Source: Amphiscolops sp. MND2022 (Eukaryota). Taken from it: a stretch of 64,000 nucleotides of DNA. The stretch is taken from assembly GCA_964187785.1 (NCBI GenBank), contig OZ076409.1, forward strand, positions 59,956,001-60,020,000. Reading direction: 5' to 3'. Below are positions 2,329 to 48,835 of this stretch, piece after piece. A program made the translations under genes and the position numbers. Numbering within the stretch: the stretch's first letter is position 1; the number at the start of each line of letters is the position of its first letter. Below the pieces are notes generated by a model. That model worked only from the letters and a program-made list of their open reading frames with translations, had not been told where the DNA came from and did no database searches.

Positions 2329-3057
2329 TGTAACGATAAGCGCTGGCGCTTGAACCGCAACGTAGAGTGGAGGAACTAGAACAGCGAATATAATCTGGGA
2401 CCTAGATCTCCGCGGCCCTAGCTCATTTTCCCTCCGAAGGAGCCAGTCCCAAGGTGGGGGAACCGTCTTGTAGGACGCTCTCTGGCCTGGTCCTAGTCTG
2501 TAACTGCTAAAAGTAACAGGCATCTTGCAAGACTCAAGACCACTGCTCAACTAGCCTTTAAAAATTGGGCTGAAAATCGATGAAGGTTGAACCGTAATAT
2601 TGGAGAATCTGATAAAATCGCCAAATTGAATAAACAGATGTTAAACAACAGCTCTCGAGCATATTAATCTACCACATCGAAAAATACAACAAGAAATCAA
2701 GAGTTCAGAGTCATTTGATGAGAATTGACCTCAGGTTCCCAGCGCTAGCGCTAGTTGCCACACAGGATACCGCAGGGATACTCAGGCGAACATCTGGAAC
2801 ACTGGTTTCCTTTACTGTAGTAATGGATATCTCCTAGAGATTGACACAATACCGTGTTCTGTATGCGTTGGGGACGTCTTCGTAGTCGTCTCCGGTGCTT
2901 GTTCGTCGCGAGCGGCGATTTCTGCTTTTTGGGGTGCTTTTTCTGGCAGGTACTTCGTCTTGAGCATGTTTGAGTACCACGTCAAATTGGAACGAATTTT
3001 TGACAAAATTTTCTAAACATGTCGGTTGATGTTGCTGTACCAGAGCTTGCCGTTACA
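2329..3057 (-). repeat. 3' LTR (729 bp) of giant Gypsy element
   Basis: TGTAACG...CGTTACA; differs from 20450-21179 by 3 substitutions and one T indel (by eye). Confidence 0.97.
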
Positions 3058-3066
3058 TCACTCCCC
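3058..3066 (-). promoter_or_regulatory. Polypurine tract (GGGGAGTGA) abutting the 3' LTR
   Basis: Purine-rich run immediately 5' of TGTAAC on the minus strand. Confidence 0.75.
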
Positions 3067-3861
3067 AGGCTCCTGGCTTGTCGTCCCTGGCAAGCGGCGT
3101 CTGGATCGTCTGGGAACTGCATCACAGTGACTGCTGGGAACCATCATCCACACATCGGGGAACAAGGACGAGTCCTTGTTTTTCGGCAACAATTTTGGTC
3201 GACTTTGCAGTTTTTTTACGAGAGAAAAAAAAAGAACTTACTGCCTAGCTATTCGTACAAAACATGAACGAGGTTTTAGCACCAGCTCGAGAGCTACAGT
3301 TTTCAGCCGGTTAAAATTCGTTTGGGCAGTCAACTTGTGTAAAAACCTTTTTGCGACCAAAGTCAGCTAAAATTTCTTTTCCTTACCATTTGAGACTACA
3401 AATCTTCAGTTCATTTCAGGCGATTAAAAACTTTTTTAGAGCTTGGGGGCTCTTACGGTGAACAACCAGATTGATGAAGAACACTAGACTAGAAAGAAAC
3501 GCAATCAAGAGGGATAAGACTTCTTTTGATTGTGACAACTCAAAAACACCGCGAACGGTGCGCAACAAAAATGATAGTTTTTTTGAACAATAGTTTTCTT
3601 TTCTTTCTGCTTGGTCACTCAAGCCACTGGGGCAGGCGTACTCTATTGGCCGTACACCCAGTGCAACACTAATGGTACACTAATTATATAACCATAACTA
3701 AGAACAAAAATTGCACTTTGTACTGTAGCACCGTTCTGGATGAGAAGTTTTGAGGCACTGTTTGTTGGCAGTTTATGAGGGTATAGGGAGCGCGAACGCT
3801 CCCATTAGCGGCTGGGTTTATTGAGCTGAACTGCGTCGGGTCCGCTCTTTAGTGGCATCAT

Positions 3862-6800
3862 CTAGGTTCCGTTCTGGGTTATCAGTCGACACTGACGCTC
3901 GACGTCGGGGAGAAACTTCTGTGGTAACTGTTTCAGAGTCCGACGGACTTTCGGGAGCGACAACTCGGCAATAGGCTGCACTAGTGCTGCATTGGGAGTC
4001 AATTCGGCAGTGTGCTCTCCGGACTGCTGCTGCGAGGACTGAGGGCTCGTTCGCGACGAAGACGGGCCAACTGGGTCTGGCTCCAAGTTATGGGTTGGAA
4101 GGTTAATGGTGATCGGTTGAGAGATGGGCCGATCCAAAGACATCGCCATCGTTGGTGCGAGCATGGTAGGCGCGAACGCCTGTTGTCTCGCTATCTCTGC
4201 TATACCTTCTACCGCTAGTGCTACACGGCGTGAGATCCATCCAGATTGGCTCCAGAGCTCGCAAGCTCTCTTCCATTTAGGGAAGCTTGCAATCTCCAAC
4301 TCCAGACAGTACTCTTCCCATCTCGCTCGTTCTGTTGAGCCCAACACGGAATTTATCTCATCATGCTGGACGATGGACATATCTCCAGACATGGTCATCT
4401 TTCCCGTAGGCTTCCATGCCGACTTCCTGGGGAATGGGATAACGCGGGATTGGAGATTCCTCTGCCTGATCTGAGCAGCGCCTTCAATCCATCATGGGAT
4501 CTGGGCTGACTCCAAGTGTTGGATTTGGCGGTTGAACACCTCTGGGGAGCGTCCAACGGGTTTTGCCCTGGGCCAACCTAACGCCTCCTTCCAATAGCGG
4601 TTTGGGAAGGCGATGCATTTGAAGCAGTACAAAGGGTCCACAGGTGGACCAGCACTAGTGCTGGCGCGAATCGCCTTCCTCATGAACTCTTGACTCCAGG
4701 GGAACCTAAAGGGGACCCCTTCCAAACTGAGAGGTGCGGAATACCAGTTCACAGGTCCATGCTCTCGGGGTAGAGGACATGCTTTCCTGGTGCGCGCGCG
4801 CAGCAAGCCCATCAAGTTCTCCTCCAACTCTCTTTCGGATTTTATGGTCGTGTACCCATGCGGCACCTCACCACTCAGCACTGCATGTATTATCTTGGAT
4901 ACGTCAGTGAGGGCCGGCCCCGCAGGTAGGTACTAAAGGAGACCATGTGCACTTGGACGGCTGTTGCCAATGGTTTAGTTGGGTATCGGCACACGCCCAC
5001 TGCGCCAAAGATAGGGGCCAAGACAGGAGCCATTGCTGCCACAAAATCTTCTACTTCAGCCAGGGTGAGATCTGCAATCTGCTGCGGCATGGGGAATCCT
5101 GCCGTTTCCCGTGAGATCTGCTGGTCGGAGTTATGTAGTGGTTGGGATTGGTCTACGCCCACGAATAGGCCGGAGGCGAACACCAGGGTGGAGTATAGCC
5201 AGTGCTGGATTGACGCACGCCAGTTGGGCGGAATAGTCTTGCTGGTCTTTGGAAGTCATCAAGTGTCCCCAACGGGTCAGACTGCGTAGTTGTCCTTGTG
5301 CCAGGACCAAGTAGCTGTAGAACACGGTGAGGTCGCAGGCAATTACCATGTCGGCTAACAAGGCCAGTGGTCCGGCTACAAACTTGGTTGGGCCCATCGC
5401 TAGCGCGAGCGCTAGTATTTCTCCGACGGTTGCCTCTCCAATTGTTTCTAACAGCTTGTCCGTTTGCGTAGAGGTCAGCGAGAACTCAGAAGTTAGTACC
5501 TCTAGGTTCCATCCTAGAACAAGACTGGTACAGAAGGCTTCCAATGGACAATTGAGCTCTCGAGCTACTTCTGCCAGAGTTCTGGTGGCAAACCTAGTCT
5601 GGTACCAATAAGCATAAGTTGTGGCTGCGGCGTCGACTTCTGCTTTCAGGTTTGTTGCTTCCATTGCTACGATACACCGCAGCCCTACAGGCAGCTTCAC
5701 GGGCTCGATTCCCGAGGCGAAGTGGATCTGAGGAATTGTTCTCTCGACGGTGCGCGCTGCAGGCCATGCACCAATTTGTTTTGTCAGGTCGGCTAATTCT
5801 GCGCGCACTGGGATTTCTTTATCTCTCTCGTTCGGTTACATTAGATTCTCGGGCAATGCGGTTGCCGTCAAGGTCAAAGGCCAGTCTGCCCATCCGCATT
5901 CCATAATCATAGAGGATAGCATCGTCAATGGTTAGCTGGGCGTTTCCCGAGCGTTCTATAGCCACAAGCGCTCTAGATACGGCGGCAAAGAAGGCTGGAT
6001 ACGATAAGGTATCTGGGCGCAGGTCCTCTCGGTCCACGCGCAAGTTCGGTGCACAGATGGCGAATTCGACTCTGCGCGCCTTGCACACCTCCAGCAGAAT
6101 GTAGACGAACTGCTGCAGACTTCGTGGCCAATACATGAATCCTGGTGGGGATACAAAGAGCGCGAGCGCTCCCAGACGACCCCGAAGGATCCCTGCGGCA
6201 CGTTCCATTGCACCGACCACCTCATTTACCAGGGCGGCAATGTCTCCAAGTCGTCGGACATTGGACATTATGGCGTCCAGGTCATGCAGCAATCCTTCAC
6301 AAGCCATGTGATCCAGAAGATTGGCAAAGATCACTCGCTGTGGGGGTGGTTCCTTTTGTGATCCTCTTAAGTTTGGATCGTATATGGCTCCAACCATCTC
6401 AGCGACCTCAGCGAAGCGAGACAGGGGCATAGTTAGCACCAGCACGTCAGGCATTAAATTGTCAATAGGGAGGTCACTTCGGCAAGTAGAATCAACTGCC
6501 ATGCAGTAGCGCGCACGCTGCAGAGCTGCTTTCAATAGGGGTTTCAAAGATCTCAGGTTGCGAGCGTAACGGGCGTTCGCCTCCCATGTCTCACCTTCTC
6601 GCAACACATACCGTGCGGGGAATTGCTCAGTGATATTGTGTTGCCGGGGCGCCATGTAATCGTTGGTTGTCATAGGCAGCTGCTCTCGAGCACGCTGTTC
6701 CCAAGCCTGCTCCGACATGTCTGCGTCACGGGGGGCGGAGCGAACGCGTGACTTACGCCGGTATCGTGGTCCGGTTGATCTCCTTTTGCTCCGTTTCAGT

Positions 6801-8070
6801 TGGAGGGGTCCTTTTCTTGATAGCGCATTGACTGGGGTAGAGATGCTCAGCCGCCATCCAAAAGCGTTTGCTATCATTGGTGACTACTGAGCCGGATACG
6901 TCGTCAGATGGAGGGAGAAAGGCTGGAGGATGGGCTTCCTCCACCGTCTCAGGTATCTCCAGGGACATATCTATTGGATTGGTACCCGAGGGCACAGAGC
7001 TCACTTCCGAGCCTGCATCCGGATCTCCATACTGTTCGATCGCGTCTGCTAAAGACATTTGAGGTGCGCTTCGGCCTAGATGACCTACCCGGTACGGGGG
7101 CCTAGGGATGACCACACTCTTCAGCTGGGGCCGAGGTACATCAGCGCGCTTGCCGGGAGGGGGACGACTAGTTGGGCTCTCGGTTACCGAGCCAGCTGGG
7201 GTAACTGAGAAGTTTCTTCAGTTAGCCGCTTTCTCCCCGCTTCTTCTCGTGTGCCAGAGGCAGCGCTTGCGCTGTTACTCGGTCCAGCGACAATTTCCAT
7301 ATCCATAGATGCCGTTTCGACTAGGGGAGCAGGAGGGTCACAGCCCGCGGGCTGAGCAGCAGCTTGCAGATACGTGGCTAATCCAGGGATTCTCTGCTCC
7401 ACGGCACGGACGAAATCGGTGGAGTTGGGATAGTTCGCCACTGCTTGCAAGGCCACAAGTACTGTTCGCTGGTACTCCTTCCCGTCAGCTCTGGGTTGGG
7501 TATGGGTGGTAACCGGGACCCCGAGGGCTCCCGATCAGAGACTGGTGCATTAGTAGTGGTTTGCAGTACCATGTGTGGCGCTCGATATGAGGTTCCAAAG
7601 GCAGGCGAACCGGAATAAGTTGGTACTGGATTTGGCGCTGGTGGGGGCAGTGCGACCATCTGAGGAGGAGGCATTGTTGCTACGCTGGCAGGCACCATAC
7701 ACAGTGAGGCTTCTTGCTCGAACCTCGTGCCCTGGCTGGGCCCGAGCATTGTGGTAGAACGTTCATCCAGGAACTGGTGCGTCAGATCGTGGCCATCCCA
7801 CGCATTGTTTTGGCAGGTTAGGGTGCGACGGTAACCGGCTACTTCCGTCACCAGAGACACGGATACGCCAGGCAGCGTCTGCATTGTGTCTAGTTGGGTG
7901 AGTAGGGCGGCCACGCCCGCTACCGCTAACGGTGAGAGGCCGTTCCTCAATCGCTCTTCTACGTATTGGACTTGATTAGTCCTCTGCGCTCGCGCAGGCA
8001 ATTCCTGAGTCCTATTGGCGTGAGGTCCCGTCGTGGAAATAGGTACCGTGTTGTTGGGGTAATAAGCCAT
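3862..8070 (-). pseudogene. Accessory ORF2 of giant element (~1,400 codons, disrupted): Pro/Ser/Thr-rich N-terminus, SGNH/GDSL-like domain, unknown helical C-terminal region
   Basis: Consecutive same-strand ORF pieces 7378-8070, 7184-7456, 6753-7115, 5819-6877, 5131-5808, 4890-5183, 4492-4881, 3862-4398 tile the region and join by frameshifts or an in-frame stop (4492). Confidence 0.8.
5954..6514 (-). CDS. Degenerate SGNH/GDSL hydrolase-like domain within ORF2
   Basis: Block order YCMAVDS (GDS-like), VLTMPLS (PG-like), VIFANLLDH (GxND-like), ALFVSPPG, EDLRP..SYPAFFAAV (DxxHP-like, His->Arg). Confidence 0.55.
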
Positions 8071-8082
8071 TATATCATAGGT

Positions 8083-8103
8083 CTAAAAAGGATTACCGTT
8101 AGG
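8083..8103 (-). promoter_or_regulatory. Putative branch point and splice acceptor upstream of ORF2
   Basis: Minus strand CCTAAC-ggtaatc-CTTTTTAG| 12 nt before the ORF2 ATG at 8070. Confidence 0.5.
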
Positions 8104-8361
8104 CTTACCAAGTGCATTGTGGGGAGAGCTTAAGGCTCATCACTCAGCAGCAATAGTACAAAGATGGTTCCATAGGGGAACCGCAACAAGTTTAAATTGT
8201 AGTTCAACTAACTAATTAGAACACAAAGATAGAAGTTATCTAACGCTACGTTACAATGTAATCATTTCATGGGATGGTTTAACACTTCCTCCCAGGTATA
8301 ACGATTATCGGGGTGGGTAAATTAAATAAAGGGGGGGGCAACAAAAAGAGTTTTGGGCGGG

Positions 8362-9720
8362 CTACTCCAGCCCAATGTTCAGGAAGGACACATACACGCG
8401 GTTATGCAGCACTACGTGAATGCCAGTGCCCTCCAGCAAATTCGTTAGGGTATGGTATAAGTTTACCAATAAGAGGGCGGGTCGCTCTGGATCCAGTATA
8501 GGTAGGTGGACCCTCGTGGATCCCTTCTCCATCAAACGCCGTATCAAGTGCGTCATACAACGTAGGTAGTCGTCTGCGAGCAGCGGCGCACGCTGGTTTG
8601 CTCTGATTATTAGCAAGTGAATACTCTGACTGGGGTTTGGGTTGATATCGGGAGGAATGGTGAGAATCTCCCCCACCTTAGGACGTAAGGAGAATACGTT
8701 CTCCTTACCGCATTCTCGTAGCACGTACCGTAGGGCAGCTGAGTTGGTCTCTAGGTCAGCGGGACACGCTAACACCATATCACCTTTTACTTGAAGAAAA
8801 TCAGTCACATCATATGAGAGGTGCTCTGTTGGGGCTGGATGCAGGATTCCCGGGTAGACAATCTCTCTCCCCGGCCCATTGTTGGCAGGCAAGCATACGC
8901 GGGGCGTACGCCCCTGGATTGCAGCCAGGTCTTGCCATACCGAGCGTGGCATCGCTCGGTTATCACTGCCCGCCCTAACCCATGTGTCTAGGGTGCTCAA
9001 AACGGCTTTCGGAGGAAGCGGAATCTCGAAAGTATGAGTCCACTCGTCCAGCAATCTAATGCGAGGATAATTGGGGAAACAAGTGATGATCAGCTCCAAC
9101 CACCACGCGAATTTCACTTTGCCACGATACCAGTCTATGATGTGGAAGCAAAGTATCAAGTCCGCGGTAGTGAGGGTCCTCAGACCTTCCAAGCAGGACA
9201 GCAGGTGCAATGGTTCCACTATTGCCTCCACTCGTGGAGCAGTGACCAACAACCACCAGTGCGGCGCTGGGCTGTATACTCCGCCCGGATCCACGTGAAT
9301 TCCGTATTTGTCACAGAGAAGATCAGCGGTGATGCATCGGACCATTTGCACAGGCTCCCGCTCGAAGTTGAAGGGTCCAAAAGCAATATTGCTGGGTACT
9401 GGGGGCATCACCGTTGCGAGGGTGAACTCTAACCCTTTCCCGTCGCTAGTCCACTCCTTGAATCGAGGACATGGGGCCTTCGCTACTCCAGGTAGTGATA
9501 ACTTCTCCAGGGTAGTATCCACGGGATGGTCTCCGTGTCGTTCCAGGGAGGAATAAGTCTTTTCAGCTCTCACCGTAAGGCGATGTACTAGATTTTCTCC
9601 CCGCTCTGGAGGGACTCCCCGGGCTCCAGTGGGAACCCTCCGGTTCTCATTGACGGCTAGCAAGCAAACACAGTCTCGCAGCCCACAGGTCCCGCACTTA
9701 TAGCGTGGCTGCCGTCTGCT
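8362..9720 (-). CDS. C-terminal extension of Pol: Cys cluster plus two tandem degenerate TARG1/OARD1-like macrodomains
   Basis: Frame continues RYQL[R]SRRQPRYKCGTCGLRDCVC-LLAVNEN after restoring 1 nt at ~9722; repeats at ~9046-9393 and ~8401-8823 align by eye to the TARG1 pattern. Confidence 0.65.
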   Translation of the reverse strand, partial: SRRQPRYKCGTCGLRDCVCLLAVNENRRVPTGARGVPPERGENLVHRLTVRAEKTYSSLERHGDHPVDTTLEKLSLPGVAKAPCPRFKEWTSDGKGLEFTLATVMPPVPSNIAFGPFNFEREPVQMVRCITADLLCDKYGIHVDPGGVYSPAPHWWLLVTAPRVEAIVEPLHLLSCLEGLRTLTTADLILCFHIIDWYRGKVKFAWWLELIITCFPNYPRIRLLDEWTHTFEIPLPPKAVLSTLDTWVRAGSDNRAMPRSVWQDLAAIQGRTPRVCLPANNGPGREIVYPGILHPAPTEHLSYDVTDFLQVKGDMVLACPADLETNSAALRYVLRECGKENVFSLRPKVGEILTIPPDINPNPSQSIHLLIIRANQRAPLLADDYLRCMTHLIRRLMEKGSTRVHLPILDPERPALLLVNLYHTLTNLLEGTGIHVVLHNRVYVSFLNIGLE

Positions 9721-12700
9721 TCCAGTTGATATCGGGAGACCTCGGAAGCCTCGGTCGGTATTGCTGTTTCCGACGGCATTGTTGTTGTAGTTTCTTTCTT
9801 CCTCGTTCTTGCCTTCGCTCTGACCAGCCTTTTTCGCGTTTTGGGTGGTCTCCCCCTCCCTCTTTTGAAAGAAGGAGCGGTCCCCGCTCCGGGCAATGTT
9901 GTGGGAAGAGTAGGGACATTGGACTGAGCGTCGTCATCCTCAGTGGCGGATTTCAGAGGAAGGGAAGGAGCGGCCGGCCAAATGGGATAGTTATTGAGGA
10001 AACTCGTCAGTGATGGATTTGTCAGTAGTGGGGCCGATGTTCCCAGTAAGGAGGGCTGTTTTTCGGGAGAGGATATTCGTGGTGACGGAGAGCGCGCGCG
10101 CTCATGGTCGGAGAATAGTTGAGGCAGATGATGGGCAGGTGATATTGATTGGTCTGAAGGGAGTTGGGGTTCGGGCTCCCTGCGATCAGCATCAACGGGA
10201 TCAGGAGGTACCGGTAGCATGATTTCGGACAACTCGTCGTCAGTGCCCGAAGTTGAGTAGTCGAATTGCTGGTAGTGCATGCGGGAACCTCCAGCACGTA
10301 ACTTTGTGCGCAGACGGGTATCCATCCAATGTTGCTTGCGCGAAGGCAAGGATACGTCAGATGCTTCTGAAAGTAGTTGTTCAGTTTTATATGAAGGCTG
10401 GGACTTATCGTCGTCAACTGCTTCAACAGAACGTTCAGGGTCAGGGTCCATGAGTACCACTATTTCGCCGCTGTCTGCTTGCGCGGTGGCGAGCTCAAGC
10501 TGCCCACTATTATGAGGTTTCAGGCGCTTAAAATGAACCTTTTGGCCTGTGTCCAATACGTAGACACGTCCTTCTTGAAAGACTTGTACTATTTTGTGCG
10601 GGCCACGCCAGGCGCGCATCAGTTTGGGAGAGCCTTTTTGCGGCACATAGCGGCAAAAAACCCAGACAAGCTCTCCCGGCTGGTAAGCTCGTGCTCGGAT
10701 AGCACGATCATATTTCAGTTTTTGGCGCGATTGGGCTTGGTGCGTGTTGCGCCGGACCAAGTCGTGAATTTCTTGTTGGCGAGCCAACACATGATCCACG
10801 TATGCTTCATGCGTATCGAAGGACTTGGCTGCAAATTCAGGGTATAAAAAGGTGAGGGGAATTGCTTTCTCAACACCCCTTGTTAACATATAGGGCGAGA
10901 AGCCTGTAGTGGCGTGCCTGGTGGAATTATAGGCATCGATTACTTCATCTAAGCACTGGTCCCAGTCGCGCATGCGACGTGAGCAAAAGACTCGCAACAA
11001 GGTTAAGAGGGTGCGGTTTTGCCGTTCCACCAAGCCTTGAGTTCGTGGATGTCCGGCAGTCGAGGTCACCTTAGTGACGTGAGCTGCCTTTAGAAACTCA
11101 TTAGAGACTTCAGCAGTAAGGTTGGGGGCATTGTCTGATTGCATGCGAGTGGGGGTGCCGTGGCGGGCAAACCATTTCTGCAGCAGCAATCGTGAGGTGG
11201 TCACTGCGTCATAGTCATGATGACTACAAGGGACTGCCTCTGCAAATTTAGAGAAATGGTCGATGATGACCAAAATGCCAGTGTTGTTGTTATCAGAGGG
11301 GCAGATTTTTAAGTGGTCATATTGGACCAGCTCGTTGAAGTAGCCACTCTGAATGTTTTTCAATTGGAATCGTACGTCACCAGGCTTGTCACGTATTTGT
11401 TGGCAGGTGAGGCATTGGCCGACGTATCGACCGACACTGCGCCGTATGCCGGGCCAAGTGTGGCGCTCTTGAATTCGAGCTACCACTTTTGAGATACCTT
11501 GGTGTCCCATTGCGTCGTGCGCGCGGAACAGAATCTCGTGCTGGTACAGTTGAGGCATTATGATCATGCACGGACGTTCGTGCATTGGGCGTTGGGTGGG
11601 GGAGTATTGCACGCAAAGGACATCATTCTTGTTTATGAAGAAGAGATCCTTTTTCTGGCGGAAGTAATTACGTGCGAACTCACGCACGTTCTCGGGAAAC
11701 ACATCGTTATCTAGGGATTCACACTGCACGAGCTTTTTCAGCGCTAGCACATGGACATCGCGGTTTTGGGCTAAAACCGAGTCCTTGATCCCATGCAGTG
11801 TAAGTGTGTGTTCATGGAGCTCGGTGTCGATGTCCTTGAGGGCCATGATCGACTCGCGCACGCCACCAGGAGAGTTCTGTAGCATGGCGTTACTCGTTCC
11901 CGTCACAGAATAGATGGTGCGCGAGGGGACATTTACTGCATGTGTTGGCAGCAGGTAATCCTCGCTGGCCTCAGTGGTGACGTCTATCCAGTCTTCAGGA
12001 TAGTCTGGATAGAAGTCCTCGTGCTTCTGTAGCACGGGTGGAGGCTGAGGCGGTAAAAGCGCGGCTAGCGCCTTCGCCTGTCGTTTTCGCTTGTTCGCTC
12101 GTTGCACACGGCGAAGCACACGGAGTGCCTGGTCAGGAGCCTTAGGCTCCAAGTTCTGCAGATGCGGTGGTAGGTCAGGATGATTTGGAATGATTCGACC
12201 TTGCAGGTCGAACCATGGGGCTATGGGGAGGTTGTCGAATTCCTCGGCCGAGAGGAAGTTCCAACGCTCTCCAGTAGCTGCCAGCTGCGCAAGCTGCTGT
12301 TCTCGGCATTGATAATCGTTGGTTCGTTTGCTCAAGCCATCAGCATTGCGGTGTTGCGTTCGTGGTCTGTGTTCCACGCGAAAGTGATACCTGTCCAGTG
12401 TCATAATCCAACGTCCAATCAATGCTTGGTCCGTGGAGTAGGTTTTCAACCAAGATAGGGCTTGGTTGTCGACTCTCAGGGTGAACTTTCGGGGAAAAAG
12501 GTAGCTGTGGTACTTGAGGATGAAGTAGTAGGCAGCAAACATCTCCAGCTTGGGTGCCCCATATTTGGCTTGGGTGGTGGTCAGTTTTTTGCTGCCGTAT
12601 ATGATCGGTGGTAGGCGTCGCTCTCCTGGAGCTCCTTGCCACTGGTGTAGGATACCGGAAATGGCAACGGCGCTGGCATCGGTGTCCAGCACAAACTCTC

Positions 12701-15700
12701 CTTCGGAATCAGGCTGCGCGAGCGCAGTCGCCTCGATCAATGCTGTCTTGATTTCGTTGAAGGCTTTTTGTTGGTCAGGACCCCATGCAAATGTGGCATT
12801 CAGTCCCGTAACGGCGTGGAGGGGCGCCACCAGCTTGGCATGCCACGGGATGAATTCACGATAATAATTAGCGAATCCCAGGAAACTTTGCATTTCAGTT
12901 TTGTTGCGTGGGATGTCCCAATCGCGCAGTTTGGCAACAGCTTTCGGGTCCGGTTTGACACCTTCTGCTGAGACCACGCGTCCCAGATATTTGATTTCTG
13001 GTTTCATGAAGTCGAATTTGGCTACGCGCATCTTGAAGCCAGCTTCGCGGAGGCATTCAAAAACCTCGCGCAAACGCGCCATGTGATCTTCCACAGTCTC
13101 AGTTGCTACAACTATGTCGTCGATGTATGCCATGACCATACTGCCTTTGCGATTGACTATTTTTTGCAGCGCTCGCGCTATTGCTCGCTGGAAGGTGGCT
13201 GATGCATTGCACAAGCCAAATGGCATTCTTCGCCATTCACAGAGTCCCAACTCACAGGCAAAGGCTGTTTTGTGGCGGTCCGCCTTTCGCAAGGGAATTT
13301 GCCAGAAAGCCCAGGCAAGATCTATGCTGGTGTAGATCTTTGCATTGCCCAGTCGCGCCAGGCTTTCATCGATACGGGGCAGGGGGTAGGCATCCTTAAT
13401 GGTTACTTCATCCAGCGGTCGGAAGTCACAGCAAAAGCGTAACTCCCCGCTTTTCTTTTTTACCATTACGATACCACTTGCCCATGGGGACAGTGAAGGT
13501 TGTATCATCCCTAAGGCCAATAAGCTCCGAACCTCCTGGTTGGCTCGTTCAGCCTTTTCGGGGGACATTCTCCGAGCACCTTCACGGTGCGGTACAGCCT
13601 CAGGCTCTACCTCTATGGTGTGTTTAGCAATGGTACAGCGGCCAATATCCGCCTTGCGTTTCATGAATAGGTCATCAAACTCGTTAAGAATGTTGTCTAA
13701 GGACTCGCAGGCGCTAGCGCCCCAGAGTTTCTTGACTTCTTGCAATTGAGAATCGGGCCCAGGGATCGGGGCCAATAGGTCGGGATCGGTGCGCTTGCGA
13801 ATCTCGCGCTCCGAAAGCCCCGCTTCACTTGGATCCGTAGAAGACAAAAACTCAAATTCAGATGAAGAAGTTAACTCAGAAGCAGTGGATAGATTCATTT
13901 CACTGTATACTTTATAAACAAAATTTGCTCGACTGTTGTCGGCTTCAGTTTTGTGGTCAGCTTCCACAGTAGCATCCAGCTTTTGGGGCACAGCCTGGTA
14001 TACTAGAGACACAGGCACTACCGTGCCTAGGTGGGCACCACATCGTACACGCTGCTGGTTGCTGGTGAGGTTTACCAGGCTCACATACAGTGTTCCTGTC
14101 TCACTGACAGTGGCCACGCTGTCCTCTAAAAAGATGGTATTTTGCAATGAGGGATCAGACAACGAGGCGTTAAGCGCAACGGTCTGGAAGATTAATGGTT
14201 CAAGCGCGTTGGTGACAAGTTTGGCCTTTGCCACTGTACGCTCGAAAGGCTGTACGACTAGGTCACTGTCCAGGGTAATGGGGGTAGTTAACGAAGCGTC
14301 ACCTACCTGGGTGTGTGCATGATGCCAGACGGGCTTCACCGGTGCTCGCACCACTATCTTCATGGAGGTTAGATCTACCAAGACTTGGTAGGAACGGAGG
14401 AAGTTTCGACCCAACAGAAAGTCCTCCACGCCCATTGCGTCATCTACCACGACGAAATTGGTTTCGAGTTCATACCCTCCCAACTGGAAGCGTATCTGCT
14501 CAGCCAACCCGAAAGTCTTTATTGTCTTCCCATTGGCAGCGTACAAATCAATTTGATAGGGTTTCAGGACCGCTCCGGTCCGTGCAGCTACCCGGTTGAA
14601 GGCGGAGAAGGTTAGTATGGATACTCCGGAACCAGTGTCCACCAGGCCTCGCAGTGGGGTAGGTGCCGCATGAGGCACCACAAAGGAGACAACGAGCGAC
14701 GCACGCTCATCTATTCGCGCTTCCCCGGTGGGTTCTTGGTGGTTGAGATTATAGCATTTCAGCTCTTGAGGTCCCAAGCATAAGCCGGGTGGGAATACAT
14801 CTACCACCACACAGGCCTCGAACTTCACGTCCACGCCGTCCATCGTTGCACAGACTGGTACTGGCGAGTACGTAGTCAGGATCTCCGACTCTCCAGGGAC
14901 GTGCCACTGTTTTGGGCGGGGCAATTCCATCCGGTTATAGAGGACAGATAGCTCAACCCAGAGTTTCGCCAAGGTTAACGTTGGTCTACGCACCTGCTCG
15001 GCTGCCAGCATAAGATGAATCGAGATCAACGTTCTCCCTTGTGGATCGAACGTTGTAGGCTCCAAGCACGTCTGAATCTGCTTTGCCCCACATGTAACTA
15101 TCAGTGGGGCGTGAAACGCTGGGTGCTCCGCTGGGTGTAGCATTAATACGCGATCATCTTCCAGGGGTACCGTGTGGGCGGCCACACCAGCGGATTCCAC
15201 TTCAGCCCATCGATTGTAGGCCAATTCATCATTAGGCCTCGGAGCTTGAGAATGCTCACTACAGGGGACATCCACATGGTCATAGACTCCACAGTGCGCA
15301 CACTGATGAATGCCTGGATAGCTCTCCAACACGCCATCAGTTACGTCTTCAGCAGTGACTTTCACGCCTTCTGGTTCAGGAGCTGCCACTGGTTTGCGAG
15401 CTTGATCGCGGGTGGGACAGTCCCGGGCAAAATGCCCAGCTTGACCGCAATTATAGCACGCGCCAACGGGTAGGCGTGCCGCAGGCTGCACTGCTGCTTG
15501 ATTGGGGGGAGCATTACTCGCAGGTGGGGGAGGCATTACTCCTTGTGGTAACACCATTTTGTTGGGGGGTAGTGGCGCGAAGGGATGAGGTCGAGACCTC
15601 ATTGCTAGTCTGGGGTCATAGGGTTGAGGGAATTGGTTAGGTTTTGGACGGTTGCGCTGCAATTGGCGGGTGGTGAAGCGGAGGGATTCCACAGTAGGTG

Positions 15701-15923
15701 GCTCGGTCAGGAAGACTTCCGAGGCATACACTATGGCCAGCTCCCGCCTCAGCGCTGGGTCTCGTACACCTTCCATGAAGCGCTGGAGGATTTCATAGCG
15801 CTTAGTGGTGATTGCCTCTTGTGGGAATCCTTGACTCCGAAGACCCTCTAGAGCGTCTAAGTACTGCATCCAGTCTTCTTTCTCTTGTTGAATGCGGCTC
15901 TGGAAAGCTTGTCGCACTTGCAT
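9657..15923 (-). CDS. pol: Largest open segment of gag-pol (2,088 aa): capsid C-terminus, zinc knuckle, PR, RT, RNase H, integrase
   Basis: Canonical Ty3/Gypsy motifs in the order PR-RT-RH-INT. Confidence 0.95.
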   Translation of the reverse strand: MQVRQAFQSRIQQEKEDWMQYLDALEGLRSQGFPQEAITTKRYEILQRFMEGVRDPALRRELAIVYASEVFLTEPPTVESLRFTTRQLQRNRPKPNQFPQPYDPRLAMRSRPHPFAPLPPNKMVLPQGVMPPPPASNAPPNQAAVQPAARLPVGACYNCGQAGHFARDCPTRDQARKPVAAPEPEGVKVTAEDVTDGVLESYPGIHQCAHCGVYDHVDVPCSEHSQAPRPNDELAYNRWAEVESAGVAAHTVPLEDDRVLMLHPAEHPAFHAPLIVTCGAKQIQTCLEPTTFDPQGRTLISIHLMLAAEQVRRPTLTLAKLWVELSVLYNRMELPRPKQWHVPGESEILTTYSPVPVCATMDGVDVKFEACVVVDVFPPGLCLGPQELKCYNLNHQEPTGEARIDERASLVVSFVVPHAAPTPLRGLVDTGSGVSILTFSAFNRVAARTGAVLKPYQIDLYAANGKTIKTFGLAEQIRFQLGGYELETNFVVVDDAMGVEDFLLGRNFLRSYQVLVDLTSMKIVVRAPVKPVWHHAHTQVGDASLTTPITLDSDLVVQPFERTVAKAKLVTNALEPLIFQTVALNASLSDPSLQNTIFLEDSVATVSETGTLYVSLVNLTSNQQRVRCGAHLGTVVPVSLVYQAVPQKLDATVEADHKTEADNSRANFVYKVYSEMNLSTASELTSSSEFEFLSSTDPSEAGLSEREIRKRTDPDLLAPIPGPDSQLQEVKKLWGASACESLDNILNEFDDLFMKRKADIGRCTIAKHTIEVEPEAVPHREGARRMSPEKAERANQEVRSLLALGMIQPSLSPWASGIVMVKKKSGELRFCCDFRPLDEVTIKDAYPLPRIDESLARLGNAKIYTSIDLAWAFWQIPLRKADRHKTAFACELGLCEWRRMPFGLCNASATFQRAIARALQKIVNRKGSMVMAYIDDIVVATETVEDHMARLREVFECLREAGFKMRVAKFDFMKPEIKYLGRVVSAEGVKPDPKAVAKLRDWDIPRNKTEMQSFLGFANYYREFIPWHAKLVAPLHAVTGLNATFAWGPDQQKAFNEIKTALIEATALAQPDSEGEFVLDTDASAVAISGILHQWQGAPGERRLPPIIYGSKKLTTTQAKYGAPKLEMFAAYYFILKYHSYLFPRKFTLRVDNQALSWLKTYSTDQALIGRWIMTLDRYHFRVEHRPRTQHRNADGLSKRTNDYQCREQQLAQLAATGERWNFLSAEEFDNLPIAPWFDLQGRIIPNHPDLPPHLQNLEPKAPDQALRVLRRVQRANKRKRQAKALAALLPPQPPPVLQKHEDFYPDYPEDWIDVTTEASEDYLLPTHAVNVPSRTIYSVTGTSNAMLQNSPGGVRESIMALKDIDTELHEHTLTLHGIKDSVLAQNRDVHVLALKKLVQCESLDNDVFPENVREFARNYFRQKKDLFFINKNDVLCVQYSPTQRPMHERPCMIIMPQLYQHEILFRAHDAMGHQGISKVVARIQERHTWPGIRRSVGRYVGQCLTCQQIRDKPGDVRFQLKNIQSGYFNELVQYDHLKICPSDNNNTGILVIIDHFSKFAEAVPCSHHDYDAVTTSRLLLQKWFARHGTPTRMQSDNAPNLTAEVSNEFLKAAHVTKVTSTAGHPRTQGLVERQNRTLLTLLRVFCSRRMRDWDQCLDEVIDAYNSTRHATTGFSPYMLTRGVEKAIPLTFLYPEFAAKSFDTHEAYVDHVLARQQEIHDLVRRNTHQAQSRQKLKYDRAIRARAYQPGELVWVFCRYVPQKGSPKLMRAWRGPHKIVQVFQEGRVYVLDTGQKVHFKRLKPHNSGQLELATAQADSGEIVVLMDPDPERSVEAVDDDKSQPSYKTEQLLSEASDVSLPSRKQHWMDTRLRTKLRAGGSRMHYQQFDYSTSGTDDELSEIMLPVPPDPVDADRREPEPQLPSDQSISPAHHLPQLFSDHERARSPSPRISSPEKQPSLLGTSAPLLTNPSLTSFLNNYPIWPAAPSLPLKSATEDDDAQSNVPTLPTTLPGAGTAPSFKRGRGRPPKTRKRLVRAKARTRKKETTTTMPSETAIPTEASEVSRYQLEADGSHAISAGPVGCETVFAC

Positions 15924-18900
15924 ACGGTTTCATCCAGCGCCAAAGCGGCTGGATAACAATTCGAACACTTTCTCGGGGGTGTCACGTTCGGATTCCGCTT
16001 TGTTAATGATGTAGTTGCGGGCTTCACCTTCAAGGTGACCGATGATGCTCCAAGCCTGGTCCTCGGCTGAGACCTTGGTTTGTGTTCTCTTCAGGTATCT
16101 CTGCATAATAAGGATCCACCCATCAATGGATCCGTCTTTGGACCCGCGATATACATTGGGCCTCGCCTGAGCCAAGTCTCTGCCGGCGAGTAAGGGCGCT
16201 AACTCTTTTGACATCGCCTTTGATATGGCGGCCGTGAATCTCAGCTGCTCGGGGGATATGGCTTCTCTTTCATCGGCCTTGGCCTCCCCCTCGCGCGTCC
16301 TGTCATGACTACCAAGAGTGGCTTGTATCGACAGGTCGGCGATTTCGTCCTTTTTACGAGTGCTGCTAGCACAGGGAGTGCCCGAGGGCAGTCCATGATC
16401 GGCTGACAAGTCTGCGGTCAAGTATAGGGAATCTGGTCCTGACATCGAAATGGGGGCAGTTGCAAACGTTGCTCCCTCGGTTTGAGAGCCTAGGGTTGCT
16501 TTGGTGTTAGATAGGTCGACTTCAATCGAGGAATCAAGATAGGTGGTCGACATCGGGTCCACGCCTTGATCTCGAGTGGTACTCTGGATTGCAGAAGGCA
16601 TCGATGATTCTGCTGAGTCGTGATGTCCCCTCATCTGCACTCGCGCAGGCTTGCGCTCTGCTTCAGGCGTGGCTATCACCAAATTTCCGGCTACTCCTTC
16701 ATCTTTCCGGGGCGCAGGCACTGCCGGCCTGGAAGTGCTAGGCTTTAGCGCGCTCGGCAGTTCCGATTTCACTACCTGGCTCGGGCACGTCGGCTCCGAG
16801 ATACGGACTGGACCTCCATTCCGCACGCCTCCACTTGCACTGGGCTGCCGCGGGAGTGACTTCTCACGCCTCAAGACATCAATGGCATTGAGTACCGTGT
16901 GCATCTGATTGTTTAAGTCGTTGATCTGCGTTTCCACGCGCAGATCGCGAGCCATCAACCTGTCATTCATCTCTCCTATCCGGTGACCCAATGTGTCCAC
17001 TCGAGCTATTTGCACATTCTGCGCGGTGCGCAATTGATCACTGACCTGCAGGCCTTCACGCATCGTCGTCTGCATCACTTTAATGTTCTCTACGATGGCA
17101 AGGTGTTGCTCATTGCATTCAGCACGAGTGCTGGCCAGACCTGCTAGGGCCCGTTGGGTTTCGGCTTGGGCATCCAATAGTGCTGCCTTGTATACTGAAG
17201 ACCGTTGCGATGAGGCCAATGAGCCTGTCATACTCCTGACACGGGATACCTCTTGACGTGGCTCGCCTACCTGTAGTATAGGTGGTCGCACCTTCTTGTG
17301 CTTCCCGTAGGCACAGACCCGGGTAGGTCCTCGAGTGGTCCCGAGTCCCCGCTGTCGCGCGTAACTCATGCCTCCCACATAAGTGAGGTCCTGCTCCATG
17401 CCAGTTTGTGAGCCAAGTTGTCTTTTTCCAGCCGGGGGTGCGCGCGAGCACCCTTCCTCTGCCGCCAGTTCATCGGTCATATATTCGAATTAGGCCAGCC
17501 CTCTTCCACTTCATTAGCTCTATCGCGGCAGGTTTCGTCGACCCACTGCTCAGTTCGACGCGAATTTGCAGAAACACTGGAGTTCTCTGAGGGAGGAACC
17601 ATAGCGGCCAATTCCTCCTTTCGCTGTTGTTCGATAGTGACTTCGTCAGACATGTCGTCTGAAAAACGCGAACCCTCTATCGTGACCCATGATTGTGAAC
17701 CAGTATGGGACACCGCCATCGGTTCAGTGGCCAACGCGTTTATCAATAGCGATCAAGATACCGCTCACGATTACTCGGAAGACTCAAATTGGGTCGACGA
17801 ACGCACCAGGGTCTTCAATTCGAAGCTGATCCCTTGGTCGTCCCGGTGAGCACTTAAGAATTTTGATGGTATTCAACGTTCTAGATTTTTCGAAACACGT
17901 TCTAGAGCTCGTAGGCTGTTCAAATTTGCACAGCGTTTTTCCACAAGCACACTGGGCTAGAAAATCAACTTGGTTTGGGGCAAAAAGTCTCCAGTCACCC
18001 ACAGGAAGGATTTCAAGGAACTTTTGGATTTTTCAAAAATCGCACGACAACTCTCCAAAGGCTCGGGTGTGCACGGGAAGCGCCGTATCCAGCCCAAAAT
18101 TGACCAGCAGATCTTAGGTACACGTAGGTTTACGAAAATGAACACAGTTTTGAGCTGCGCCCCTTCTACACAGTTTCACCTAGGTACAGACGTGCGGTAC
18201 CACTATGTACCGAAATACAATGTTTTTCACGTCTTTTTCAAGATTGCGGTGCACGGGAAAGAGCTAGCAAGCTCAAATTCTCTGCAACGACGTAGGAACT
18301 AGCACAAGTTACGATGGTGGGTTGCAATGTAGCCCCAATATAGCCCCACCCGTCGGCTAAGGTGCCCGGGTTACTTGGAAAAATTAAGAAAAAAACTGCC
18401 TTTTTGGACACCTTTTTGGGCTCCACGTTTTTTCTATTTTCTCGACAAGTATCAGACAGATCGGCACCAAACTTGGTAGTCTATGCCAGCAGGCACTCAC
18501 AATGCCACTAAAATGGTCGAATTGAAGCGCGAGCGCTTATTTGAGTTTTCGACTCAATATGTACGTTGTACACGAAAAAACACTGTTTTTGACTACTTTT
18601 TTCACAATTTGACCAAGAGGATCACCTCAGGAAGTGATACGGCTGGCAAAATGGGACTAACGTGTTGCCCCACTATCCGGAGCACTGGGATAAACCCTCA
18701 ATTGGTCGTGCCCGTTAGGTATAAGGCACTGACAGTCCTGTAGTTTTGGAATTTTTCGGCTTTTATGTGCTTTTCTGAAGTCGAAACGTCAGAGAGCTTT
18801 TCTCGACTTTGGTGAGCGATACGCTCGCCAAATTTTCGGCACTAACGTTAACTTTTGTGGTGGTTACGAAAATGCAACCACTTTTTGGCTAGGGTTCAGG

Positions 18901-20416
18901 AATCGATGACCCGACCCTAGCTCGGAGACAGTCCGGTTTTGTGGAAAATTGACCAAATTCAGTGCGTTTTTCCACTTTTCTCAGCACTGAACAGGAATTT
19001 TTGCACGCGGTTTTCACCACAATGCGTTGTTTGTATTATAAAAACAGAAAATAGGAGCGCGCGGGCTCCCCGGTCTCGAAAACGCTGAGTGCCCCAGAGG
19101 TTTTAATGATGCACTCTGGCGCTCCTGAAACTGGCCAAAAATCAAGGTTTTTCAACTTTTCTCAACGTTGAAAAGGAATTTTTGCATGCGGTTTTCACCA
19201 CAATGCGTCGTTTTTGCTGCTACAATCGAAAATGAGAGCGCTCGAGCCCGCTCTTTTCGAATTAGCTTTGCTCTGGGTGTTTTTGGTTAATGCACTTTCT
19301 CTACTCGGAAATGCCAAAAATCACAAGTTTTTCGCACTGTATCAGCCCCAGGCTGCCTGAGTCCGCTACAAAAGTTGCAATTAGTATCCTGAGGGTCAAC
19401 TACACTTGGGATAGTGCCGTACACTGTCATTTTACACTTCCACACTCGTGTCAGTCACATTTTGGGTGCCTTTTTGGCCAAATTTCCACTTTTTTCACAT
19501 TTTTCGGCATCAAATTGGCACTTTTATCACAATCAAAGGCTTCAACTTCGCCTTTCGTGCCTCGTGCCGGCTTTCTCGAGCCTGGAAGCTGCTTTTCAAA
19601 ACTTTCCACCACACTTTCCTGGCTTCTGTGAGCACTAGTGCTCGAAACCAAGAAAAACACCAAAAAAAACACAAAAATGAGGTTTTTTTCCCAAGTGCTA
19701 TCTTTTTCGCAGAAAAGCACTTCGTTGGGTGTCGTTACATTTATAGTAGAACGTCACTGACCTACACCATCGATTCTCCATCGAAAGAGGTGTATTTTCA
19801 AAATTTTCGCCAACCATACTCCATCTGAGCGACTCATCTGGTCCTAGGGGGTGCATCTTCACCACGTTATTTCTCCACTTCTAGACCAGATAGAAACACG
19901 CGGATGGAACCATTAGCACCGTCTGTCGTTGTACTTGCTGTCCACCAAAAACCATGCCTCTAGGACGTCTCCACGAGAAATGGGAATAGGAAGTAGGCAA
20001 CACAATATTTGTCCCCTCCTTCGCCTCGCTGGAGCATGGTCAACCATCCATCCGTTACCCTCTTGCATGGCATAAAATGGCTGAAAATAGCTCAAAAAAC
20101 CTGTTAGACACCCGTAGCCACGTGCTACGGTCCTCTACACCTGCAAAAAGGTACCCGCTGATGGGTACACAACACATCACACATAAAGAGCGATTTCCTT
20201 CTAAAATGCCCAAAAATACCATTTTCGCACCTGAAAGCACGCTTTCTTCGGCATTTTCTCTGGTTCAACGCCTCTCCCAGTTCCAGTAAGACGTAATACG
20301 ACTAAAAAGAGGTAAAACTCTGCTCTTCTCTCCTGTCCAGAGTCGAAAACGGGCTTGGCGCTGAACACCAGGGGGCCAGATCTTTTAAAAACCGCTAGGG
20401 AAAGCTTCCCAAGACG

Positions 20417-20434
20417 ATCCCTCTGTGGTCGCCA
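20417..20434 (-). promoter_or_regulatory. Primer-binding site TGGCGACCACAGAGGGAT (tRNA-Arg-like), 15 nt downstream of 5' LTR
   Basis: Starts with TGG (complement of tRNA CCA) and resembles the 3' end of tRNA-Arg(TCG); conserved at 48818-48835. Confidence 0.75.
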
Positions 20435-20449
20435 AAAAATGAGTTTCTT

Positions 20450-21179
20450 TGTAACGATAAGCGCTGGCGCTTGAACCGCAACGTAGAGTGGAGGAACTAG
20501 AACAGCGAATATAATCTGGGACCTAGATCTCCGCGGCCCTAGCTCATTTTCCCTCCGAAGGAGCCAGTCCCAAGATGGGGGAACCGTCTTGTAGGACGCT
20601 CTCTGGCCTGGTCCTAGTCTGTAACTGCTAAAAGTAACAGGCATCTTGCAAGACTCAAGACCACTGCTCAACTAGCCTTTAAAAATTGGGCTGAAAATCG
20701 ATGAAGGTTGAACCGTAATATTGGAGAATCTGATAAAATCGCCAAATTGAATAAACAGATGTTAAACAACAGCTCTCGAGCATATTAATCTACCACATCG
20801 AAAAATACAACAAGAAATCAAGAGTTCAGAGTCATTTGATGAGAATTGACCTCAGGTTCCCAGCGCTAGCGCTAGTTGCCACACAGGATACCGCAGGGAT
20901 ACTCAGGCGAACATCTGGAACACTGGTTTCCTTTACTGTAGTAATGGATATCTCCTAGAGATTGACACAATACCGTGTTCTGTATGCGTTGGGGACGTCT
21001 TCGTAGTCGTCTCCGGTGCTTGTTCGTCGCGAGCGGCGATTTCTGCTTTTTTGGGGTGCTTTTTCTGGCAGGTACTTCGTCTTGAGCATGTTTGAGTGCC
21101 ACGTCAAATTTGAACGAATTTTTGACAAAATTTTCTAAACATGTCGGTTGATGTTGCTGTACCAGAGCTTGCCGTTACA
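20450..21179 (-). repeat. 5' LTR (730 bp) of giant Gypsy element
   Basis: Near-identical to 2329-3057; followed on the minus strand by spacer and PBS. Confidence 0.97.
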
Positions 21180-21410
21180 ATCAACTTTCAAGCTACAGCT
21201 GAGCTACTTTGTGTATTTCGGCACTGTGTGACATTTTTGGTCAACTGACAATTCCAGTCTTCGGAAAACGTTTTTTGTAGCTAAAGGGTGTCTGTTCAAT
21301 GTTTTTCCAGCATTTGGAGAAGTAGCAATCAAGTTTATTCAAAAGACAGCTTTTCGACTTTTCCAGTCTCAAGCGGTGTTCCCTTTTTGTTCTGGTTTTC
21401 TGCTTAGTTC

Positions 21411-25724: not shown

Positions 25725-26482
25725 CCATGTTCAGCACTCCCTGCGAATTTGTTCAGATCTGTTCAGATCCTGACAGATATTGCAGGATTTGTCAAAAATT
25801 AACTAGTCATAAAAAAAGTTTTGCCATTGATATTACTGTAGTTTATTAAGATGTGCTCTTCAAGACAAACACGCTTCTTAATTGAAGTTTTAAAAATTTT
25901 GTTCGAACCTGAACAGATCTGTACAGATCATGAAAGATATTCCACGGTTTGTCGAAAATTAACTACACGAAAATGACTAGTAAACTTCTATAATTACAAC
26001 AACTCCAGCAAATTATTTTCCCAAAATATGATAACAGCAGCACTTTATCAGCACATAACTAATTTCATCCGCCAAAACGAAGTAAATATGACGAACGAGC
26101 CTCTCAAAGTTCGACAACCATTTTGGAAAGTTCAAATGAAAAGATTGAATTACCGTCTATAAACAATTGCGAACATTCTTCAATCACCAAAATACCCGTG
26201 ATTGGGAAAGCTTTCCTGCTGGAGAATTATGAGTGATGGAGACTTTCAACTGACTGATCCTTGGTCAACTAAAATACTTTGAGTAGTTGAAGCCCAAAAA
26301 TGCAGTACATTGGTTCCCTGTAAGCTCTCGAAAAAATCATATAAATCTGTACTAAAAATCTTCGAACATCTGTAAAGATCCTTGCAGATCTGCACCTGTC
26401 CTATCGAGGCAGTGGCACGATCTTTACAGATCCTGAAGGGAATAAGGCTCACAGATCTGTACAGATTCTGAAAGAAAGCTCA
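25725..26482. mobile_element. Second (inverted) copy of the CTGTACAGAT MITE family, in lectin intron 1
   Basis: Ends are reverse-complement matches to the two ends of 787-1325. Confidence 0.6.
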
Positions 26483-30749: not shown

Positions 30750-31357
30750 ATAGGACAACACAAAGTAGTGAATTCCAGAACGTGATAGCTTGGTTGGTAG
30801 CGCGAAAAGCTGCGGCATAATAGGTAACCTGATCAAGCTGCAGTTGGCGTCAGTTTTTGTTTGTTTTCATTCACTTTTGTCAGTTCATCTCTTGAATTTC
30901 TTGGCACGATCTTGCAAGATCTTGCAAATTCGTGGATTTCTTGATAAAAATCTTGGCAAGATTCTTACCAAGAAATTCAGGAATATCCAAGATTCTTATC
31001 AAGAGTTGCAAGAGTTTTTACACTGGGTTGTTTTTCGATAGTTTCTGTTGCTCGGTGACTTGGTCTCGAGACCACATTAGTTAGAAGCTTGCAAGGATGA
31101 AAAATGGAAGAAATCACCGCTTCAAATTGATTTCTGCTATAAATAAGATTTCCTGACCAACTTGGCCCAATTATTCGAGTCTGGGTCCATATCATTTTCA
31201 CCCAGTGTTTTTTATAACAAAAACTGGCGACTCTTACAGTAACAAAACATTTTACTAGGATTTAAAATTCCAATCTTAAAGGAAGACTAGAATTTATGTA
31301 GAAACTAACTTTTACGAATAAATAAAACATCGGAATTCCGATGTTTCACCTTTTCTA

Positions 31358-31453
31358 ACGCACTAACAGAATCTTGAATAGTACCTAGCATCTAGAGACA
31401 GGATTAATCCTGTCTCTAGATGGTAGGTACTATTCACAATTCTGTTAGTGCGT
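31358..31453. repeat. 96-bp loopless palindrome (copy A)
   Basis: Arms centred on GGATT|AATCC, a few mismatches. Confidence 0.9.
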
Positions 31454-32607: not shown

Positions 32608-32703
32608 ACGCACTAACAGAATCTTGAATAGTACCTAGCATCTAGAGACAGGATTAATCCTGTCTCTAGAAGCTAGGTACTATTCAAGATTCTGTTAGTG
32701 CGT
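32608..32703. repeat. 96-bp loopless palindrome (copy B)
   Basis: ACGCACTAACAGAATCTTGAATAGTACCTAGC...; arms differ at one position. Confidence 0.92.
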
Positions 32704-48817: not shown

Positions 48818-48835
48818 TGGCGACCATAGAGGGAT
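48818..48835 (+). promoter_or_regulatory. Primer-binding site TGGCGACCATAGAGGGAT, 15 nt after LTR
   Basis: 17/18 identical to the PBS at 20417-20434. Confidence 0.75.

Follow-up and report, generated by a model that had tools for sequence, protein, structure and literature searches.

Retroelements have captured SGNH domains repeatedly, i.e., in open reading frame 1 (ORF1) of long interspersed nuclear elements (LINEs), in Ngaro elements, in Penelope-like elements and in rotifer long terminal repeat (LTR) elements, and the published cases stress intact catalysis. Vesta1 LTR elements of rotifers carry a GDSL/SGNH ORF3 with intact catalytic residues in the env position, and Athena-L Penelope-like elements encode catalytically dead GDSL derivatives (PMC5408684). 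Giant gypsy elements such as planarian Burro collect extra domains, there including Env (PMC6431247). Here, we analyse ORF2, the last gene of an 18.9-kb Ty3/gypsy element on the minus strand of contig OZ076409.1 from Amphiscolops sp. MND2022 (assembly GCA_964187785.1, positions 59,956,001 to 60,020,000; this whole stretch of 64,000 nucleotides is referred to as the window). ORF2 occupies the env position and contains an SGNH-fold domain whose catalytic histidine is replaced by arginine throughout its family. Searches of the open-access literature, i.e., with Repbase and most subscription papers outside, listed no description of a pseudo-SGNH ORF of ~1,450 amino acids (aa) in gypsy elements.

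The fold was predicted with AlphaFold2 for the natural sister protein P0018 (886 aa, 79% identical to the reference protein P0002 introduced below), based on an alignment of 89 rows. The model shows a mean predicted local distance difference test score (pLDDT) of 65.9, with values of 60-95 by blocks of ten over the SGNH domain. Within residues 104-292, strands and helices alternate and form a three-layer alpha/beta arrangement with a parallel sheet that matches SGNH proteins structurally. That is, the SGNH fold is found over exactly the block for which the original prediction had proposed it from the DNA (Table 1). The original prediction would have fallen without a predicted SGNH fold; the model provides one. 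When compared with 48,161 solved chains, the best structural matches are CgnD (Z 10.1, root-mean-square deviation (rmsd) 3.6, 195 aligned residues) and PAF-acetylhydrolase (1bwp; Z 10.1, rmsd 3.9, 180 aligned), with GDSL lipases also among the top matches. Z values of at least 8 are reached by 14 chains, and GDSL or SGNH appears in 11 of the top 50 titles; further top-50 matches are esterases, acetyltransferases and the OSK domain of Oskar, which we take to share the SGNH fold. These Z values are little above the 7-8 of models without a match, yet the matching rows share one region and one superfamily. A second structural comparison agrees on the SGNH fold; Foldseek on the P0018 model gave a best E-value of 0.05 and no match at or below 0.001. 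With regard to sequence searches, ORF2 showed only scattered Pfam matches (E 0.01-1, in one or two members), nothing useful in NCBIfam and PHROGs and a best E-value of 1.3 in a profile search of the PDB, and the ESM Atlas search returned blank, which shows neither absence nor novelty.

We assigned active-site positions by aligning model residues 104-292 with residues 1-179 of the E. coli thioesterase I chain (1ivn), assuming ungapped ends and using the active-site numbering of PMC10792757. In this register, Ser10 of the thioesterase corresponds to Ser113 of P0018 and His157 to Arg270. The following counts consider all rows of the 89-row alignment with a residue in the respective column; these rows are related, include decayed copies and are not independent. 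In block I, Asp112 is found in 34/35 rows and the nucleophile Ser113 in 31/35 (serine codon at 6490-6488 of the window). Block II shows Gly in 2/42 rows and Leu in 32/42, with the register taken from the sequence motif only. In block III, both Asn169 and Asp172 are present in 39/40 rows, i.e., the Asn lies three residues before the Asp, and the residue directly before the Asp, which is the usual oxyanion Asn position, is hydrophobic by sequence register. Position 270 in block V is Arg in 40/47 rows and His in 1/47 (arginine codon at 6019-6017), the acid position 267 is variable, and no conserved Asp-x-x-His was found. The arginine also occupies the catalytic His position in 14/14 of the long representatives shown, on every branch of a quick-version tree with long branches meeting, which we used for family groupings only. 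Further conserved arginines of P0018 are 106 (33/34), 251 (39/45) and 263 (41/46). Given the arginine at the His position and the loss of the block II Gly, the domain is very probably a pseudo-esterase, and the loss of the catalytic His is, as judged from the aligned rows, a conserved family trait and not decay. The domain had thus rightly been called degenerate, in the sense of a trait of the family. The proposed change of DxxH to DLRP holds with respect to the lost His but not in its register, which reads x-D-L-R-P versus D-x-x-H-P, i.e., the Arg stands on the His and the D of DLRP lies one residue off the acid (ungapped ends assumed).

Relatives of ORF2 are numerous. A search with the piece 5822-6883 among longer proteins resulted in 43 matches, all from ENA, and 113 relatives were collected, of which 17 are at least 1,400 aa long and form four families. 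The first one comprises three proteins of 1,435 aa with 96-98% mutual identity, and the piece from the window is 99% identical to its member P0002. Identity to P0002 is 75% for the second family (seven proteins, 1,426 aa), 38% for the third (five proteins, 1,456-1,493 aa) and 37% for the fourth (two proteins, 1,473-1,521 aa). The respective 90% clusters comprise 491, 581, 657 and 173 proteins, including many fragments, and 15 of each are listed. A profile search of 1.84 billion representatives provided 609 matches at E <=0.001; nine of the best 150 are less than 40% identical to all four reference proteins. From the clusters of these nine comes the distant relative P0275 (1,187 aa), which is 26% identical over 702 columns; these relatives are found on much shorter contigs. 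One of them carries the label of a partial protein from a Bacteroidota metagenome-assembled genome (816-base contig), which we read as host DNA in a bin. Among 11 pol relatives, three are on contigs of exactly the same size as those of ORF2 relatives (196176, 220414, 111964), and the sister ORF2 proteins are likely to be encoded in LTR elements, too. In JGI metagenomes, 18 and 12 pattern matches for the DNA of ORF2 relatives were obtained, none of which was confirmed.

Conservation is distributed unevenly along the protein. Compared with P0002, the two distant families show 37-50% identity in aa 26-120, 205-245, 526-714, 804-983 and 984-1115 and 32% in aa 1116-1300, versus 17-28% in linkers and tail. 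Judged from the proteins alone, the frame of ~1,450 codons that is open across families and this difference between core and linkers argue that ORF2 is under purifying selection at the protein level. Intact or selected copies, which the original prediction had named as decisive, are thus present in the form of unbroken, selectively conserved sister ORFs among the proteins. Its relatives identify ORF2 as a conserved accessory gene in a lineage of large Ty3/gypsy elements, with a product of ~1,430-1,520 aa.

The copy in the window has lost its open frame. That is, the proposed length of ~1,400 codons holds for the long unbroken relatives, but here ORF2 is split into nine pieces, as seen from the three minus frames and the comparison with two natural sister proteins. 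The start at ATG 8070 is as in the sisters and as proposed; the end is at 3818, and at 3862, the earlier bound, a tail in a shifted frame terminates. We find seven frame changes (near 7460, 7210, 6730, 5826, 5220, 4891 and 3953), one stop codon (4494-4492) and one short deletion that keeps the frame (near 7622). Offsets to the unbroken sisters are 1 to ~30 bases. Since the window is the shorter sequence at 7/8 offset changes, the breaks are lesions, and introns were rejected as their source. The two LTRs differ by three substitutions and one single-base indel (99.5% identity), thus the insertion is young. Disabling lesions number 8 in the 4.25 kb of ORF2 versus ~3 (one inferred) in the 9.3 kb of gag-pol, which is an excess with a binomial P of about 0.006 (0.002-0.013 for 2-4 gag-pol lesions; post hoc, one copy). 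Given the near-identical LTRs, the excess suggests a parent element in which ORF2 was broken before this insertion, with the protein provided in trans or not needed for copying inside a cell. The weak splice-acceptor-like sequence in front of ORF2 ties for 5th-7th place among the 1,143 AG sites of the element using an ad hoc score. A second ORF2 was not found in the window by profile search.

Beyond the SGNH domain, we modelled the natural sister P0105 (374 aa, 69 rows). Its residues 21-200 form a compact all-helical domain with pLDDT 82-98, followed by a poorer part (37-69), and the larger P0018 model agrees. The best match of this domain among the 48,161 solved chains has a Z of 3.0 (28 chains at Z of at least 2), and Foldseek gave E-values of 0.31 or worse. 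Since a Z of 3.0 is unusually low for a helical model, this hints at, but does not prove, an undescribed fold, and a domain that models confidently yet matches nothing solved is a good structure target. Internal repeats of the helical region (a T-x-x-E motif occurring three times) are unsupported, with a best probability of 10%. Hydrophobic helices had been proposed for this part of ORF2. The GEILALALAMG stretch turned out to be a core helix of the globular domain, with a 19-residue Kyte-Doolittle mean of at least 1.6 in 0/48 gapless rows, while VAAMAPVLAPIFGAVG is indeed apolar, reaching this value in 32/36 rows (median 1.95). The latter segment is flanked by acidic EVED and basic RYPTKP. With ~1,025 residues upstream and no signal peptide, it would more likely form a one-leaflet hairpin or a buried helix than a true anchor. 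Signal peptide and C-terminal anchor are absent in 6/6 long members according to hydropathy (own script), which is in accordance with the original prediction, and 0/6 start with Met-Gly. No Env, fusogen or fusion-protein fold was listed in the structural searches, where the first 420 aa and aa 1115-1300 are without a confident model. The N-terminus, proposed to be disordered, does have low-complexity, poorly conserved linkers, but aa 26-120 and 205-245 are conserved modules. The first of these is recognisable by eye even in P0275 and has no sequence match in the PDB.

With regard to function, we tentatively favour a cytosolic adaptor, i.e., a protein whose dead site binds anionic lipid, whose apolar segment dips into the membrane and which docks particles or RNA; we hold this at somewhat less than even confidence. 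ORF2 would be translated from its own, probably spliced, message and would not leave the cytosolic side. The dead active site, which retains the Ser and conserved arginines, would grip an anionic ligand, e.g., a phospholipid head group, without cutting it, and the apolar segment would dip into one leaflet. ORF2 would thereby dock particles or RNA of the element on an internal membrane, either for assembly or for routing to a germ-line compartment where insertions are inherited. It would act in trans, such that a copy with dead ORF2, like the one in the window, is still carried along. Lipid binding may be expected by analogy with the esterase of the LINE ZfL2-1, for which liposome binding survives active-site mutation (PMC3905857). 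Several observations weigh against this adaptor. In ZfL2-1, liposome binding was attributed to surface charge (PMC3905857), and the SGNH domain of ORF2 is not net basic (28 K+R vs 30 D+E). The apolar segment, with pLDDT 51-69 in the model, may be no more than a buried stretch, and the ~500 C-terminal residues may carry the main activity. The splice acceptor depends on the ad hoc score, the lesion count is post hoc and from one copy, and errors of the assembly could account for single-base indels.

The main rival is an Oskar-like RNA scaffold, which we consider doubtful. Here, the pseudo-SGNH domain would bind RNA and the disordered linkers would drive condensation without any membrane role, such that element RNA is gathered into granules for germ-plasm targeting or for shelter from small-RNA silencing. 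The OSK domain has the SGNH fold but binds RNA instead of acting as an enzyme (PMC10792757), and Oskar likewise places a small N-terminal module and a disordered linker before its SGNH fold (PMC7250577). OSK (5a4a) is among the structural matches with Z 7.5, rmsd 5.5 and 164 aligned residues, but it ranks 29th of 50, under active esterases. The conserved arginines and the basic flanks of the domain (isoelectric points 9.7 and 9.4) suit RNA binding as well. On the other hand, OSK has Asp at the nucleophile position (PMC10792757) where Ser is retained in ORF2, no binding of oligo-(A) RNA was seen for the ZfL2-1 esterase (PMC3905857), and the conserved apolar segment is left unexplained.

A non-canonical active enzyme, i.e., a lipase, deacylase or acyltransferase with Ser113 as nucleophile and His173 as relocated base, appears improbable. 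The block I Asp-Ser pair (34/35 and 31/35), Asn169 (39/40) and His173, which follows the block III Asp in 36/40 rows, could serve such an enzyme, and SGNH enzymes without the acid exist (PMC9487903). These acid-less variants, however, retain the block V His (PMC9487903), and the Asp-Ser pair has a structural role, too (Asx motif; PMC10792757). In the most distant members (P0275, P0279 and P0237), position 173 holds Asp or Tyr, the block II Gly is nearly absent (2/42) and the oxyanion Asn position is hydrophobic.

Slightly less credible still is a counter-defence factor, whose helical domain would block a host silencing or immune protein and for which the SGNH fold would be a structural passenger. 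Such a factor would work in trans, the large conserved domain is without known match, and the pol of these elements has an additional C-terminal region, too; but there is no positive evidence, and the strong conservation of the former active-site pocket would be unexplained. Least probable is the envelope substitute suggested by the original prediction, in which ORF2 would use fusion, vesicles or protrusions to pass particles from cell to cell: the env position, a possible spliced message, the one apolar segment with basic residues after it and the Env-independent transfer in Drosophila MDG1-group elements (bioRxiv 10.1101/2025.03.14.642691) would fit, but the long members offer no secretory route (6/6 without signal peptide) and no Met-Gly start, ~1,025 residues precede the only apolar segment, no Env or fusogen was matched, the sORF2/FAST proteins have 100-200 aa and a confident transmembrane helix (bioRxiv 10.1101/2025.03.14.642691), and Rodriguez et al. 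argued against an env-like role of the rotifer GDSL ORF3s for the same missing anchors (PMC5408684).

The element has direct LTRs with TG...CA ends and, according to Pfam, the pol order protease, reverse transcriptase, RNase H and integrase, i.e., it belongs to Ty3/gypsy. As had been proposed, ORF2 is located in sense direction, after pol and before the 3' LTR. Coordinates are given in Table 1. The gag start is probably located upstream of the N-terminal piece near 17654, across a frameshift; this piece matches no Pfam family at the curated cut-off. The coding part has a GC content of 50-58% compared to ~35-38% in the flanks.

Table 1. Features of the Ty3/gypsy element and its ORF2 (positions within the window).
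Feature	Positions	Strand	Remarks
3' LTR	2329..3057	-	729 bp
Purine-rich tract	3058-3073	-	precedes 3' LTR on the minus strand
ORF2 (env position)	3818..8070	-	broken here; 1,435 aa long in unbroken proteins of its family
Basic C-terminal region of ORF2, aa ~1116-1300	4230..4890	-	conserved; low-confidence model
Apolar segment of ORF2, 19 residues	4989..5045	-	uncharged, two or three prolines; only candidate membrane-dipping stretch
All-helical domain of ORF2, ~180 aa	5175..5706	-	pLDDT 82-98 by blocks of ten; contains GEILALALAMG
SGNH-fold domain of ORF2 (very probable pseudo-esterase)	5954..6514	-	model residues 104-292 of P0018
Conserved N-terminal module of ORF2, aa 26-120	7711..7995	-	79/39/37% identity across families vs 44/17/17% in next linker
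Splice-acceptor-like sequence (branch point and pyrimidine-tract-like)	8083..8105	-	13 nt before ORF2 ATG; weak
pol C-terminal extension	8362..9735	-	frameshifted off here; fused to integrase in sister proteins
Remaining gag (CCHC knuckle) and pol (protease, reverse transcriptase, RNase H, integrase)	9657..15929	-	Pfam
gag N-terminal piece	15930..17489	-	terminates at stop 15930-15932
5' LTR	20450..21179	-	730 bp, TG...CA ends

The pol extension after the integrase has ~460 aa, is 40-51% conserved in the sister families and shows a CxxC-x4-CxC cluster; an AT-hook-like motif lies just upstream of the extension. It contains two weakly similar units (probability 10%, E 0.003) with a pattern that recalls macrodomains. 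Searches of Pfam, NCBIfam, PHROGs, the PDB and phage proteins gave no match for it, and further searches turned up only macro-domain ORFs of fish endogenous retroviruses. Between protease and reverse transcriptase, a beta-rich stretch without Pfam match (~13900-14400, minus strand) resembles by eye the degenerate dUTPase-like domain reported for the same position in Burro and rotifer elements. A primer-binding-site-like sequence beginning TGGCGACC (20417-20434, minus strand) is ~15 nt from the 5' LTR and not adjoining it; we take it to resemble the complement of a tRNA-Arg 3' end. Scans for tRNAs and Rfam families gave no match. The target-site duplication is imperfect, with AATC on the left (2325-2328) and ATC on the right (21180-21182), i.e., either 4 bp with one A lost or 3 bp. 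The 5' untranslated region is very long (~2.8 kb, 17655-20449, minus strand) and includes a 115-nt repeat (18966-19080 and 19147-19261); ~1.1 kb of it is 73% conserved with a related element at 49899-50956.

This related, apparently non-autonomous element (48599-54410, plus strand) is 73-85% similar in its LTR end and 5' region, has no ORF2 by profile search and lies inside a decayed gypsy element whose LTR-like repeats are found at 45297-45485 and 56078-56266. Elsewhere in the window, a host gene fragment (58087-58689, plus strand) shows a weak match to the rhodopsin family of seven-transmembrane receptors (E 0.0009, below the curated cut-off). A 1.25-kb tandem duplication (30758-32703) has a 96-nt near-perfect palindrome in each unit (31358-31453 and 32608-32703), and another palindrome is located at 57441-57588. 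Dispersed inverted and direct repeats of CTGTACAGAT-like units (793-1313 and 25734-26482) probably represent a non-autonomous DNA transposon family.

In comparison with known systems, Vesta1 ORF3 is similar in being an SGNH gene that occupies the env position, lacks both coiled coil and transmembrane anchor and has an untested function, but it is set apart by its description, i.e., intact catalysis and cloned ORF amplicons of 1.3 kb versus Arg for His, 4.3 kb and extra domains in ORF2 (PMC5408684). The esterase of CR1/L2/RTEX ORF1p (ZfL2-1) likewise has its SGNH domain after a non-catalytic N-terminal part and was proposed to target membranes; in contrast to ORF2, it is an active enzyme with a strongly conserved active site, a gag-like position and a coiled-coil dimer (PMC3905857). 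Its structure 4c1b is not among the matches listed for the SGNH domain of ORF2. Amphibian Ngaro-like elements, which use a tyrosine recombinase, share an extra last ORF with an SGNH domain and no proven function, but they belong to another retroelement order, and their domain was recognised with a standard domain search (PMC9210276), whereas Pfam gave no match for ORF2. The OSK domain of Oskar (Z 7.5) is an SGNH fold without enzymatic function that follows a small domain and a disordered linker, yet Oskar is an insect host gene with a LOTUS domain, Asp for Ser and no long C-terminal helical region (PMC10792757, PMC7250577). The sORF2/FAST-like fusogens are accessory ORFs of an env-less gypsy element, too (MDG1 group; bioRxiv 10.1101/2025.03.14.642691), but they are short, single-pass and often myristoylated, while ORF2 is about ten times longer and without those marks. 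From retroviral and errantiviral Env, ORF2 differs by its missing signal peptide and C-terminal anchor (6 long members).

We consider it unlikely that ORF2 is a new kind of trafficking protein, i.e., a lipid- or RNA-gripping pseudo-esterase with an undescribed helical fold and a membrane hairpin that, in the absence of any envelope glycoprotein, delivers particles to the germ line or to other cells and that has helped several families to reach hundreds of copies in one genome. If ORF2 did move particles between cells, this would be a third route beside Env and sORF2. Compared to the captured SGNH domains described so far, the lineage of ORF2 is deep (to 26% identity) and keeps the SGNH fold while fixing Arg at the catalytic His. 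Binding may thus be separated from hydrolysis in this family, such that the binding hypothesis can be tested with a single soluble domain.

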